Positions 40,013 to 61,120 of a stretch of 64,000 bases of DNA are shown here, piece by piece. Numbering within the stretch: position 1 is the stretch's first letter; each line of letters opens with the position of its first letter. The notes under the pieces are model-generated. The model had not been told where the DNA came from. It saw nothing but the letters and a program-made list of their open reading frames with translations, and made no database searches. This DNA comes from Macrostomum lignano (taxonomy: Eukaryota). The stretch covers positions 496,001 to 560,000 of the forward strand of contig NIVC01000362.1 in NCBI GenBank assembly GCA_002269645.1. The letters are read 5' to 3'. The position numbers and the translations under genes are program-made.

Positions 40013-40076
40013 AGTAGTATTATTAAATTACACGCACCCCACATTTTTACATGTAAAAATGAATATAGTCCCCACC
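40013..40076 (+). repeat. Left terminal inverted repeat
   Basis: agtagtattattaaattacacgcaccccacatttttacatgtaaaaatgaatatagtccccacc matches the reverse complement of 61057-61120 at 60 of 64 positions. Confidence 0.92.
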
Positions 40077-40330
40077 TACACTCGAACTGTAATACGCCTC
40101 CGTCAGTTCGAGCTAACGAACGAAACGCAACTCGCCCAAGCCGGCGTTCGATAAGGTACAAATCTTAGCTTTCTTATCTTAATACGACACACTAACCAAC
40201 ACTAGCGTTCTCCCAAAAGAAATATTGAATTCAAAGTCCAATTCTTCCTTAGCCTTGGCCATTTATTTCTGCAAAGTATATTTGACTGAATTCGCCGCAA
40301 GTCCATACGCATTAAAAACGAGTAAGCAAA

Positions 40331-40875
40331 TTACCGCAATCTAATACGCAGATAGTTCATCGCGAAAGAACGCAAACGATTATAACAGCGCTTAAACAGA
40401 TTCTCGGCGCCACCACCACTAATCATGCTCGCTAGAAAATCCTTCAAACCACCACCACGATGCAGTTTAAAGTATAAATAAAACGAAATCCATATACCAC
40501 AGTGCAGACTTGTTGGTTCTTGAATAGCAAAACGCGAATATTCCCAATTTCCCCCTCCACAATTCCGTATAAACCACCGACGTATTAACTCACATGGATT
40601 TAACCCAAGGAATCGAAATACTCTCCCTTCCTAGAGCCCCTCCTACCCAACCTAAAACCCCCCACCCATAACAAAACCCAATGAGAACCCGGCAAATTTG
40701 AAGTATCGGTATTCACGATCAGAAAATAATGCCTTCTGTCTCTCGGGATTCGCGGGATACTACTCAACAAATCGACAGGAAAAATACCCAAAAAACAAAC
40801 GTCTTTAAAACCGTTACATAGAATAATCACAACACGTTGCAAGAACAAGTTCGTTACACCTTCGCCTCGCCTCAT
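40331..40875 (-). CDS. Adenain-like cysteine protease (about 181 aa; one frameshift near 40602)
   Basis: GIFPVD...IVNTDTSNLPGSHWV (catalytic His)...EYFDSLG. Adding one T continues LNPCELIRRWF...IQEPTSLHCGIW (Gln/Cys)...RIRLR*. The ATG overlaps the MCP stop (ATGA). Confidence 0.92.
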
Positions 40876-42194
40876 TTCCAAGCGGTTCCTGGCACAACGT
40901 CCCGCAGTTCGGTAATCTGTAGTTGCTTGTCGAAAACACCACCGAAAATAACGTTATAGACCTCCGCTGTAGCCGTTCCAAAACGCATCTCCAGTCGGAC
41001 ATTCCCTTCCTTATACAATTGTACCGTCGGCGCAACTCCCCCGTCAGATCCTAACGAATACGCGAGTATCGTATACCCTCCGTTGTAGTCCGCCATCGAG
41101 AACCCCAAATCCCGTCCTTGTAAATACAAACCCAGTTGTTGACGCAGAGTTGTATACTCCTTTGCACAATCCCCTGTGAAGTCGAATTGACTAGGCCGTG
41201 TCGGTACCGCCTCACCATTTACGTAAACTCCAACGCTGATCAAATTCGCATGCACGAAATTGAACGGATTTGTCGCCAGACTTCCATTAAATGCAGTATT
41301 TCCAACGACTACCACCAGCAAAAGACGTGGCACTCCGCTCGGAAACAGATTTTCGTGCGTATGGCTTAACGACCCTTGCGGTATTGTGAACGTACCCAAT
41401 GATAAACTGCGATGAGGGTACAAGGCATTATGGGTCTTCAAACCATGTGCATGGGCTCCAATCACACTGGCAGATGGCTGAACATACCGCAAACGAAGCT
41501 CCGCACTCTGAATCTCAACCTCGTAATCCTTTAACACTGCCTCACCAATCTGTGCGGCACTTAACACGAATTTGCTCTTTGCCGGTAGTAACTTTATCCG
41601 CAAAGGCGTCTTTGACAACAAATACCGTGGCTGACGAAATAGATCCAAAAACAAAGGCCCTGAAACCGTACAAGTTCTCCCACCCGCAATTAGTGCCTGT
41701 CGCTTCACTCGCCCAACGTTCGCGACGCCGGTGGCATTCATTTTTCCAGCAGTGTCCTTGTAAAATCCCCAGGCAGCCAATCCGCCGTCTTGTCCCAACC
41801 GACCATACTCCAAAAGCGTCAGAAGCATGGCCTTGTACGGATACATGAAGCTCCCGCCTTCAACGACCGTATCTCCTATCCGCAATTGCACGTCTTCGAA
41901 CAGCGTACTCACCACCATGTTATTCAGACAGACATAGTTTTTCGCAGCATCCACAGCCCCTCCACTCTCGTCTACTACTCGGATTCCAACAGTTAGAACT
42001 GTTTCTTGTAAGTCGACATACAAATCTCCAGCCGGTACAATCTCGAACTCAATTGGCCCTCCTTGCGTAATCCCATGTTGAGGCTGTATATCCGTGTAGC
42101 GACTGTCCACAACACTGAATTGTACTGGTGGGCTGTCAAATAACGTCAACTCACTTTTCAATCCAGCGACGTCAGGCCCCAACAACTGATCCAT
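40872..42194 (-). CDS. Major capsid protein (double jelly-roll type), 440 aa, intact
   Basis: N-terminal KSELTLFDSPPVQFSV...GGPIEFEI...YVDLQET and later GSLATNPFNF...VYVNGEAVP resemble Maverick MCPs. Size and position also fit. Confidence 0.92.
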   Translation of the reverse strand: MDQLLGPDVAGLKSELTLFDSPPVQFSVVDSRYTDIQPQHGITQGGPIEFEIVPAGDLYVDLQETVLTVGIRVVDESGGAVDAAKNYVCLNNMVVSTLFEDVQLRIGDTVVEGGSFMYPYKAMLLTLLEYGRLGQDGGLAAWGFYKDTAGKMNATGVANVGRVKRQALIAGGRTCTVSGPLFLDLFRQPRYLLSKTPLRIKLLPAKSKFVLSAAQIGEAVLKDYEVEIQSAELRLRYVQPSASVIGAHAHGLKTHNALYPHRSLSLGTFTIPQGSLSHTHENLFPSGVPRLLLVVVVGNTAFNGSLATNPFNFVHANLISVGVYVNGEAVPTRPSQFDFTGDCAKEYTTLRQQLGLYLQGRDLGFSMADYNGGYTILAYSLGSDGGVAPTVQLYKEGNVRLEMRFGTATAEVYNVIFGGVFDKQLQITELRDVVPGTAWK

Positions 42195-42587
42195 CTACTT
42201 GCCAAACAAACTGAATAACTTTTTAGTCGTGGCGCTCGGCTTTTTCTTTTTACGTATGCGTCTAACTCGCCGACCACGTCCAACCTGTTTTTTTACCGCA
42301 GGTGTCTTTCTGCTTATACCCTTTTTCCTGACTCGTCGTCGCTTAACCACAACTGGTCCATCAGTAGTCGTCAATCTACGTTTCTTACCCATTCCAATCG
42401 TCTTCTTCAGGAAGCTTAAACCGCCCTCTACTAAATCCTTCCGAGCTCTACGTAGCACGGGATATATCACTCTCTCTGTTAAATTCGTCAAATATCCGTA
42501 TCCCTCGTACACAGGTATCGAACTCGACCCACCACCCGTCCGCGGCTGTGTACTAGGTCCCGAATAGAATGCAAAAACCGGATCCAT
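42195..42587 (-). CDS. Small basic core/DNA-condensing protein, 130 aa
   Basis: MDPVFAFYSG...GGG...PVYEGYG N-terminus and an Arg/Lys-rich C-half. Its stop abuts the MCP ATG. Confidence 0.75.
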   Translation of the reverse strand: MDPVFAFYSGPSTQPRTGGGSSSIPVYEGYGYLTNLTERVIYPVLRRARKDLVEGGLSFLKKTIGMGKKRRLTTTDGPVVVKRRRVRKKGISRKTPAVKKQVGRGRRVRRIRKKKKPSATTKKLFSLFGK

Positions 42588-58929: not shown

Positions 58930-59892
58930 GCATTCGGAACTCGGCGTGTGGGTTGGTTGACTCCGTCGCCGCCGTCGGCTTGTTTATGTGGACTGTAGGG
59001 GACTTGTATTTGTAAATGTTTCGTATGCGACTTTTATTTAGTGAAGGCTTGGACATATGTGTCTATTTATTCTTTTGGATTCGCTCTGTGTGCAGAATCG
59101 TACATGTAAATACAGTGTGGCGTAGATCCAAGGCCTTCGTTCTATGTAAGGGCTTGCCAGCGGGGTGTCTGTCTTGTTGTGTCATCGGTGGAAATATAGC
59201 GTTGTTAAAGGATTGGTTTGGATCTTGTTTGTCTTAGGGTTAAAGAGAGGGGTGATAAACTCGGGGTTTGAGTTTTCGGTGGTGTTGTTAGTTCTAGGGC
59301 TTCTGGGGTGGGGGGTCTGTATTATGGGGTCTGGTTTATCTCAAGTGGGGGTGAAGCATGGGGGTGGGAGTCGAATCACCCGGGGGAATCTTAACGCGGC
59401 TATATTTTTTAAATCGCATGTAATTTGCTTTAGTTCTTTAAATTCAACTTTTATTCAATTTTATTTTATTTTACTTGTTAAAAACTTTTAATACAAAAAT
59501 ATACCGGTTTGTCAATGAATGTATTAAAACTTGTAGTGCTAAAATACACGGATTCGATGTTGGTTGAAGTAGCTACTGAAGCCGGCGTTCAATCGAGAGG
59601 GCGGATAAGGTAAACAAAAGTGCAAGATATGCATATGTAGATGCCGCGGAGACGGATGAAAAGTAACAGAAAATATGCGAAAAAGTATAAGTACGAATAT
59701 GAGTGGTTGGTATCGAGGTTTTGAGTTCTATGGGTAAAATATTGAAGCCTAGTGACAGTCCCCCTGGTTCTAATCTGTACTACATAAAAATGGAAAATAT
59801 CCTGATCCTAAAATTGTAGACGTTTCGAGAAGTTTAACAATACAGCATAATAATGTTTGTTAGCAGGTAGGCGAGTACACTTAATGGCGGAT

Positions 59893-60474
59893 TCAGTCAA
59901 TCAACACGGCCGTGGACGATAGTGGAAAGGTCGGCATGGACGGCGAGCGTGGTGTTGAAGTCCATGTTGGGGCAGCACGGCGGTTTGGGTTCGGTCCGGG
60001 TGAAGGTGTTTCGGTGCTGACTCTGCAAATAAGAGCGGAATGCTTCGGTAGTTGGGGGCCATGTTTCGGATAATGATTAGAATTTACTTACGTCTGAGTG
60101 GCTTGAGAATACTCTTGGCTGCGGAAGTCATTCGGACGGCGGGACTCGGGAGAGCGGATGCGTTTGTAGCAGTGGTGAAGCAACGCGAGCACCAGGAACA
60201 GAAAAATAATTAGAAAAACGACCTTCAGGGCCACCAGTTGCGCACTTGCTAGGTTGATTAGTTTGTTGACGCTTTCTCCGATTGCGGTAAACATTTGGGT
60301 ATTATTGTATGCCTGGACGGCTATACGATTTCGGAGCTCTTCTTGGGAGTAATGGGAATTCTCGGATAATTGTCTGACAACTGCCGAAAGTTGTCTGGTA
60401 GTTTCCGCGTTGTTTTGGGTGGCTTGGGCCTGTTTAATAAACACAGCCAGTATTTTTTGTAGTCGGTTCGCCAT
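59893..60474 (-). CDS. Two-exon single-pass membrane protein (60474-60092 + 60022-59893), about 170 aa; 128 aa if unspliced
   Basis: Helical Gln/Asn-rich N-half, TM helix LVALKVVFLIIFLFLVLALL, then a basic stretch. Donor GTAAGT at 60091 and ttatttgcag acceptor at 60023 splice in frame to a Pro/Ser/Thr tail. Confidence 0.65.
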
Positions 60475-61056
60475 TAAGATGGTTATACGAGACTCGGTGA
60501 ACTAATAAACTTGCCAGACTTGCCAGGCTATTCACTCGAGAATCCGACTTGACGCCGTTTTTAGCGCTTGCGTCTAGAAGTTTGTATCTGTTCAAACCCT
60601 CAAGTCGTGGGGAGGGGTGGGGGTGGGGGTAAAAGTTGTGCGCGGGTGGTTGATGAGAATCGGATTTTAATCGATTAATGTGGCGGGGGTGTACATTTCG
60701 CTGTGTGCGCCCTAGCGTTTGGGGTAAGGTCTTTTCTCGGAAATGTAGCACTTATGGTCCGGCGGGAACGGAGTATGGATCGTAGAGTTGGTATAGAATG
60801 CAAGTGGTTTATTTACGGAGCAAGTGGTTATTATAATCTTCGCAATATCTATTACTGGAAGTGACGCAGGCCGCGCTCGTGAGTAGTGTTGCCTAAGGCC
60901 GAGTAAAGCGTATACCTTATCGTGCGTTTAACACGGTTTCGGAATTTGAAATGCTTGGTGAATAGTCTGTTGGTTTCCACCTACTCGGGTGCGACTGCGA
61001 GTATAAGATAAGTAGGGGTACGATTTGTAGGCGGCTCGCTTGAGCGGGTTAGGACG

Positions 61057-61120
61057 GGTGGGGACTGTATTCATTTTTACATGTAAAAATGAGGGGTGCG
61101 TGTAATATACTAATACTACT
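61057..61120 (-). repeat. Right terminal inverted repeat
   Basis: Ends ...taatactact. 60/64 match to the left TIR. Contains the 22-bp palindrome tcatttttacatgtaaaaatga (61071-61092). Confidence 0.92.

Follow-up and report, generated by a model that had tools for sequence, protein, structure and literature searches.

In a 64,000-nucleotide stretch of the Macrostomum lignano genome (GCA_002269645.1, contig NIVC01000362.1, positions 496,001 to 560,000; hereafter the window), positions 40013-61120 hold a real element, a Maverick of this free-living flatworm, and we consider it probable that spliced-leader (SL) trans-splicing and cis alternative splicing together resolve one replication-gene unit of this Alpha-type Maverick. 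On the minus strand a TATA box is followed by genes for an SSB-like (single-stranded DNA-binding) protein, a TBP-like (TATA-binding) protein, a deoxynucleoside kinase (dNK), the DNA polymerase pPolB and a dUTPase, in that order. A previous sequence-only reading of the window had described a Maverick or adintovirus with accessory genes, and the terminal inverted repeats (TIRs), a core set matched in Pfam, the dUTPase, the dNK and the TBP-like domain were all confirmed.

In the mechanism we propose, the replication genes from SSB to dUTPase would form one polycistronic unit transcribed from the TATA box near 56575. SL trans-splicing would cut out the downstream messages, as was seen once, for dUTPase, and as may also happen for pPolB, whose missing start codon would be supplied by the AUG at the 3′ end of the SL. 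The second route is alternative splicing in cis: a conserved donor within the SSB tail, whose joining to the dNK acceptor was observed, would also be joined to the TBP acceptor. Judging from the functions of their families, SSB and pPolB would carry out protein-primed strand-displacement replication, dNK and dUTPase would provide dTTP and exclude uracil in non-dividing cells, easing replication outside S phase, and the TBP-like domain would most likely aid transcription from viral promoters or occupy host initiation factors. A wider picture, which we offer tentatively, is that of an autonomous polintovirus lineage in which the pPolB of some families can be translated only after the SL has added its AUG, with its own TBP-like factor, possibly fused to SSB, and with a high-copy, polymerase-deleted satellite alongside.

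Splicing and start sites of the replication genes

Contigs from four runs were placed on positions 45966-61130; X1, X2 and X3 are guessed to be RNA, X15 is of unspecified kind, and the matches listed cover 24 of 61 loose ends and 15 of 20 joints. The canonical introns of the dNK, SSB and membrane-protein genes were spliced in all three RNA-like runs, and X1 and/or X3 showed five introns of a plus-strand gene with 11 exons, including its 15-nt exon 5, while X15 showed none of these splices. An X3 contig over dUTPase ends in 10 untemplated T at 48272, where the coding strand of the genome has only three A. A loose end in X3 at 48873 corresponds to the published 35-nt SL (PMC8629364), namely to the 21 nt that precede its terminal G. 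In the window these 21 nt are missing, and in the genome they precede GT at 33 places. We therefore regard use of the host SL on the element as very likely. The transcript check proposed by the sequence-only reading thus showed introns in four genes (SSB, dNK, membrane protein and 11-exon gene) and the SL once, on dUTPase, in one of three RNA-like runs. No SL junction for TBP, dNK or pPolB was found among the matches listed in these runs, and an X3 joint from 51240 to 55557 was set aside as a low-complexity artefact. The SL gene copies (33 matches) are arrayed on C1214, C3830, C4525 and C4853, in many cases with about 11-17 kb between them. A second acceptor, which is very strong, is found at 49006, 134 nt upstream of the observed SL site and ahead of an in-frame ATG, so a longer dUTPase isoform may exist.

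The TBP-like frame opens at a pyrimidine tract and YAG in exact phase 0 in 15 of the 20 loci with a match, the acceptor being displaced by an indel in four of the others and missing in one. In one family the AG of this acceptor is itself an in-frame stop, and two outside relatives read Gln directly before the same position. A donor is available in the SSB gene: across 7 exon-2 frames, with 1,870 codons in total, GTRAG occurs in phase 0 just once per frame, in alignment at Leu|Val-Ser and 42-50 codons before the stop; the nearest in-frame acceptor for this donor is the TBP acceptor. The public protein P0140 ends with VKDL-P-I-stop after the donor Leu, an ending that fits one acceptor only in 10 kb, 5 nt before the dNK ATG, and an X3 contig terminates on the last exon base of the donor. 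Therefore the SSB-tail donor works in cis. Whether it also yields an in-frame SSB-TBP-like fusion, as the matching phases would allow, we judge to be evenly balanced. Of two other candidate starts for the TBP-like frame, a cis splice from SSB exon 1 was ruled out in the window, as it would lead from phase 2 into phase 0, and the SL AUG was downgraded once the SSB-tail donor had been found.

For pPolB, TTCCAG stands before the first Pro (Leu in one) in 8 loci of four families, and ATG followed by CC stands at the same position in 5 loci of two families. Because acceptor-Pro and ATG-Pro interchange in this way, the terminal AUG of the SL would probably be the start codon of pPolB, a claim we make with modest confidence. 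All reported flatworm SLs have a terminal ATG, which can act as start codon (PMC12582326). A public 5′-partial pPolB starts 4 codons past the acceptor, its frame being open 56 codons further up.

Several observations weigh against this mechanism. The SL junction comes from one contig in one run of guessed-RNA kind, and an X1 contig passes 48873 unbroken. Likewise the pPolB acceptor is crossed unbroken by X1 and X3 contigs, and the TBP acceptor and the SSB donor by X1 and X2 contigs; contigs spanning two genes are no proof of a single transcript, and no SSB-to-TBP joint was present among the matches listed in the runs. An upstream in-frame ATG exists at 1 of the 15 phase-0 TBP loci. Of the four families with an acceptor at the pPolB start, two have such an ATG as well, at a distance of 17 or 38 codons, and the SSB-tail donor could also feed the pPolB acceptor. 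Low-level SL addition at internal acceptors in flatworms may be splicing noise (PMC12582326). Finally, a pLDDT-49 model of the SSB-like protein found no structural match at E<=0.001.

If that noise explains the SL on dUTPase, processing could be purely in cis, as in adenovirus E2, with one promoter and an SSB-tail donor joined to the TBP, dNK and pPolB acceptors to give SSB fusions. The conservation of this donor and its use in cis to the dNK acceptor agree with such a scheme, as does the phase 0 shared by the donor and the TBP and pPolB acceptors, and cis and trans splicing often share acceptors in flatworms (PMC12582326). We nevertheless consider it unlikely, since Met-Pro and acceptor-Pro interchange at the pPolB start, the annotated pPolB starts at the acceptor without an upstream exon, and the X3 contig beginning at the SL site has a depth of 73 versus 24 upstream, which is a weak hint. 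The adenovirus-like spliced early region suggested by the sequence-only reading, whose interpretation is partly supported overall, accordingly survives as cis alternative splicing from a shared upstream donor and fails in that the SSB appears to resemble the T7-like/NCLDV (nucleocytoplasmic large DNA virus) type and the host SL is also used.

An internal promoter for each gene, with downstream or non-AUG starts and incidental acceptors, would explain why several contigs cross the acceptors unspliced; in the window, a TATA-like word precedes the TBP acceptor by about 50 nt, and Met44 of the TBP-like frame is conserved. Yet the 43 residues ahead of Met44 are conserved too and match the beginning of the TBP fold in alignment, the zinc finger ahead of the first pPolB Met is conserved in all families, and acceptor position and phase are kept at 30-40% protein identity, making this explanation quite improbable. 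It could also be supposed that the accessory arm arose by mis-joining of host DNA, or that a single copy acquired it recently as cargo, as the window copy is a scaffold chimera and the plus-strand gene is intron-rich and host-gene-like. This is hardly credible: the join lies at 45.1-46.0 kb, away from the arm, the right TIR closes the arm in several copies, and the SSB-TBP-dNK-pPolB order recurs in diverged families, one of which has TIRs and a matching 6-bp duplication. For SSB, TBP and dNK the supposition is refuted. The SL-based mechanism thus remains the one we prefer.

Ends, copies and class of the element

The element has 64-bp TIRs (94% complementary, with AGTAGT starts) and about 16 countable genes (Table 1). 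Its bounds as first given, 40013 to 61120, include an N gap that proved spurious, with no insert at that place in copies C297 and C1668, so the real length is about 20.3 kb; C297 measures 20,306 bp between its ends. A target-site duplication is missing from the window copy, since its two halves derive from different insertions: the hexamer flanking it on the left recurs as the right flank of C1431, and the one on its right as the left flank of C1430. All five young left ends are matched by their 6-bp flank to a right end on another scaffold, and therefore the scaffolder exchanged halves among at least five insertions that are nearly identical and, since these left ends are identical over 388 bp, recent. 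Several genes of the window copy are frame-broken, other copies are broken at other places, and pPolB is a single frame of 1,482 codons in one of three copies read. Short-read contigs differ from the assembly by small indels near some of the frame breaks, so some breaks are probably assembly errors.

Table 1. Features of the element, in window positions
Feature	Position	Strand	Remarks
Left TIR	40013..40076	+	AGTAGT start; 5 left ends 100% identical over 388 bp
Adenain-like cysteine protease, two frames here	40331..40873	-	40-55% identity in other families; no Pfam match
Major capsid protein (MCP), 440 aa	40872..42194	-	Assigned by position, size, conservation; 65-76% identity across families
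Basic core-like protein	42195..42587	-	
rve integrase with C-terminal chromodomain	42617..43759	-	Pfam
Conserved ORF without assigned function	44004..44672	-	32-36% identity in other families
Small basic protein spanning gap, broken	44700..46090	-	GGFLP motif
Spurious N gap, where scaffolding joined two different insertions	45142..45965	.	Overlap duplicated on both sides
Probable penton (minor capsid)	46177..47073	-	Position; 37-45% identity across families
A32/FtsK-like packaging ATPase	47104..47817	-	Pox_A32 E 0.024 (weak); ~60% identity across families
PLA2X, parvovirus-type phospholipase A2, two frames here	47845..48240	-	PF08398 (PLA2_4) 9e-8
dUTPase, two frames here	48386..48867	-	Pfam 3e-16, split over two frames; SL joined 48872/48873; poly(A) 48272
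pPolB, three frames here	49128..53406	-	N-terminal C2H2 finger, HNH insert; phase-0 acceptor start, no ATG
dNK	53868..54668	-	In-frame intron 54286-54402, spliced in X1, X2, X3
TBP-like exon, ~180 aa, ATG-less	54669..55250	-	Frame continues into dNK in window family; phase-0 acceptor 55250
SSB-like gene, two exons, 333 aa	55390..56481	-	Intron 56093-56182; acidic tail; internal phase-0 donor 55522/55521
TATA box upstream of SSB	56573..56578	-	TATA-like box before SSB exon 1 in 6/6 families
11-exon gene, 245 codons	57192..58929	+	10 GT-AG introns, open frame; exons 3-10 symmetric phase 0 (15-105 nt)
Coiled-coil and transmembrane protein, two exons	59893..60474	-	Intron 60023-60091
Right TIR	61057..61120	-	

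The scaffold join at 45-46 kb leaves the accessory arm unaffected. Other copies were sought, as the sequence-only reading had proposed: positions 53600-57000 gave 30 matches in the genome, including 8 contigs at 96-100% identity, and pPolB is followed by the arm in six of the seven other copies fetched (C1431, C4380, C297, C1391, C273 and C4741), with the right TIR closing it in four of those six. In the copy on C1668 most of the arm is lost. That the arm is a genuine part of the element, and not mis-joined host DNA, can thus be taken as practically certain. Its accessory genes lie, as had been stated, mostly in 7.5 kb next to the right TIR, the dUTPase being misplaced in that statement, as it sits left of pPolB, outside the arm. 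On C1668, an inverted 1.6-kb duplicate of the left end (41380-42966) replaces the right arm; the flank hexamer pairs with the left flank on C356, and this seems to be a real inserted variant of panhandle type.

A search of the genome with the TBP-like protein gave 73 matches, and 20 stretches fetched around them yielded five further families. All six families, diverged to 25-60% protein identity, share the order SSB, TBP, dNK and pPolB, one of them without dNK, followed by dUTPase where that side was fetched, which bears out the proposal of a gene-rich lineage. A diverged element on C889 is 18.9 kb long, with TIRs and a matching 6-bp duplication in cis. Beyond SSB, the arms are 2.1-3.1 kb long in four families and have no clear homology to the 4.6 kb of the window; the distal part with the 11-exon and membrane-protein genes is family-specific and may be an old capture. 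We conclude that the element was recently active and comes from a lineage that radiated in Macrostomum. Another observation concerns a family with about 26 near-identical TBP matches (C753, C2271, C1135; L065, L068, L083), which is without dNK and, save for ~300 N-terminal codons and ~40 at the end, without pPolB, and retains the capsid, integrase, ATPase, dUTPase, SSB and TBP genes. It looks like an amplified non-autonomous or defective-interfering element.

The closest protein matches, at 79-100% identity, are labelled as M. lignano. The Pfam scan covered 20 frames of the element. The integrase matched PF00665 at E 5e-7, just under the curated cut-off, as well as Chromo, and pPolB matched DNA_pol_B_2 (PF03175, 7e-21) and Endonuclease_7. 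By its predicted genes the element files as an Alpha-type (pPolB2-like) Maverick or adintovirus, because it combines pPolB, an rve-chromo integrase, TIRs, 6-bp duplications and PLA2X. The major capsid frame had no match in Pfam, PHROG or PDB sequences, and the putative capsid folds (double jelly-roll MCP, single jelly-roll penton) were assigned from synteny and conservation. We take the His/Asp/Gln-Cys motifs of the protease to justify its adenain-like label, and the GGFLP motif of the small basic protein is presumably pX-like. The N-terminal frame of pPolB shows Cys and His motifs, which we assume to be vOTU-like; there was no profile match to OTU.

A protein search with pPolB gave 414 homologs, the named matches outside the host being insect and sponge elements at 30-32% identity and other homologs being 30-36% identical. 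The pPolB and MCP phylogenies suggested earlier were followed up in part. A quick pPolB tree of 52 rows, selected from 120 listed homologs plus own-genome frames, grouped 7 own-species rows with one metagenomic protein (support 100, stem 1.05 changes per site), and for MCP, searches of viral contigs confirmed no relatives, as was also the case for viral contigs searched with pPolB or the TBP profile and for metagenome contigs searched with the TBP profile.

Accessory genes and their relatives

The dNK has a P-loop and ERS-like/lid motifs and matched PF01712 at 7e-24, and Drosophila dNK and dCK structures match at E 1e-8. In the window family the dNK and TBP matches share one 473-codon frame; an obligatory TBP-dNK fusion was ruled out, as other families end TBP at ~180 aa or continue in another frame. 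In L067, L070 and L071 the TBP-like frame continues for about 150 codons across dNK, in a different frame from it.

We are highly confident of the TBP-like identity. The domain matched PF00352 at E 1.1e-5 (29.5 bits, cut-off 22.9), and a comparison with 1.84 billion proteins gave 7 matches, including four unnamed relatives at 33-37% identity. A profile of five sequences, composed of the window frame and these four relatives without any canonical TBP, retrieved 35 PDB TBP sequences (best E 4e-8, ~160 positions). Four aromatic positions (Y/F, Y, F, F), which we take to be the DNA-intercalating ones of TBP, are retained, and the two Asn of the QN motifs, whose role we likewise assume, are gone. 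These four unnamed proteins (P0010-P0013) come from short ENA/Logan contigs. Their identity of 49-67% to one M. lignano family suggests related elements in other hosts.

The identity of the SSB-like gene as a single-stranded DNA-binding protein is likely, being supported and not proven. Its two-exon product matches the public protein P0139, and language-model features (Atlas) scored 0.92-0.95 to Nucleocytoviricota clusters, in which the labels DUF2738, DUF5871 and Pox_I3 are on 10-17% of members. Foldseek, run with the poor pLDDT-49 model, gave a best E of 1.2e-3, its top ranks being NCLDV and phage SSB-like proteins. A single-sequence fold reached pLDDT 34, a wide structural search (VIA) with the SSB model was uninformative (Z<3.5), and no Pfam, PHROG or convincing PDB sequence match was found. 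On these sequence and model comparisons the protein appears to resemble T7-like/NCLDV SSBs and nothing adenoviral. An X3 contig ends at 56535, near the TATA box of this gene.

The 11-exon gene and the membrane-protein gene proposed by the sequence-only reading are both real, the former with 7 of its 10 GT-AG introns backed by joints among the matches listed, the latter with its single intron seen in RNA-like runs. Exons 1-4 of the 11-exon gene are 45-63% identical in a sister family; the gene has no family match, and exon 1 none in Pfam. Its symmetric micro-exons (15-57 nt) and two paralogous GRxPGPPQP exons would permit combinatorial skipping, and they presumably recall flatworm micro-exon genes. 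Homologs of the membrane protein occur at 67-70% identity elsewhere in the genome; it has no confident family, and its Atlas score of 0.82 is a lead at best.

Comparison with known elements and viruses

In adenovirus E2, one unit contains both SSB and polymerase, and splicing provides the start of the polymerase; the adenovirus DBP is unrelated to OB-fold SSBs, and adenovirus has no integrase, TBP or SL. The element would be like E2 in its proposed unit of SSB and polymerase and differs from adenovirus in integrase, TBP-like domain and SL. Large DNA viruses carry dNK and dUTPase. The element would share a T7-like SSB with NCLDV, its own being a probable one, and a TBP with mirusviruses, whereas Nucleocytoviricota and mirusviruses have far larger genomes and no pPolB (PMC4889955, PMC12768974). 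Mirusviruses have introns and a trans-spliced terminase, but there two viral RNAs are joined and no host SL is involved (PMC4889955, PMC12768974); the term spliced leader was absent from the part of the mirusvirus text searched. Viruses with pPolB normally use non-OB SSBs (PMC4889955).

With Alpha adintoviruses and animal Mavericks the element shares pPolB, the rve and chromo integrase, ATPase, a probable penton, a putative hexon, an adenain-like protease, PLA2X and TIRs (Starrett 2021, PMC8502044), and PLA2X in the virion module is a hallmark of Alpha adintoviruses (PMC8502044). In the text of Fig S2 of that paper, an SSDBP label is near both the Hydra map and Stylophora and a dUTPase label near the former, an uncertain assignment from page layout, so these two labels are, by that text, already known for the group. 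In contrast, the animal adintovirus maps carry no kinase or TBP label in the part of the supplement covered, TBP is named only in a legend for non-animal MELD viruses, and "splic" is absent from the main text as available (PMC8502044). In our quick tree the pPolB of the element forms its own long-stemmed clade. Vertebrate Mavericks likewise have AGTAGT ends, 6-bp duplications and, next to the core, accessory regions (Barreat and Katzourakis 2021, PMC8097293) and are 12.7-24.6 kb long; they have eight intronless core ORFs in two modules, whereas nearly all genes of the element lie on one strand and at least four are spliced. The element is ordinary in its size and accessory regions, and dUTPase and SSDBP are on Alpha maps; dNK and TBP were not found there. 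Nematode and oomycete pPolB2 Polintons share the HNH (Endonuclease_7) insert (Jeong 2023 preprint). As this insert is present here and in many insect and metagenomic pPolB homologs, it is not unique to nematode and oomycete pPolB2, contrary to the claim.

M. lignano SL operons, with a 35-nt SL ending in ATG, [T/C]TNCAG acceptors and short spacers, have been described for host genes (PMC8629364), whereas here the SL sits on a virus-like element. No dNK, TBP or SL use was found for animal Mavericks, and neither a Polinton that uses an SL nor these Macrostomum elements turned up, in a literature coverage that stopped short of Repbase, subscription journals and some supplements (including the Buck 2024 gene maps), which limits the claim. 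In the further papers searched by term, neither dUTPase nor a nucleoside kinase encoded by an element occurred. Bidnaviruses are named as having a kinase, and PMC10468722 has no Maverick, Polinton or virus term. We regard the gene set as moderately novel and the splicing logic as the surprising part. Mavericks have been described as compact, intronless and reliant on the host for transcription and nucleotides, and this lineage adds an NCLDV-style SSB, a TBP-like factor and a kinase to a protein-primed replicon. If true, a replicase that depends on the SL AUG would tie the virus to SL-using hosts. Young transcribed copies in a host capable of transgenesis (PMC8629364) make particle formation and regulation of animal Mavericks directly testable.

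Two further features lie elsewhere in the window. Positions 143-29292 hold a 9,861-bp unit three times in tandem with 100% identity; a further copy of 3.8 kb is inverted and has 252-bp repeats inside it. The whole is possibly an assembly artefact or a large satellite. At 31287-37976, on the minus strand, there is a 2,229-codon intronless frame with SecA-like DEAD/helicase domains and an OTU domain.

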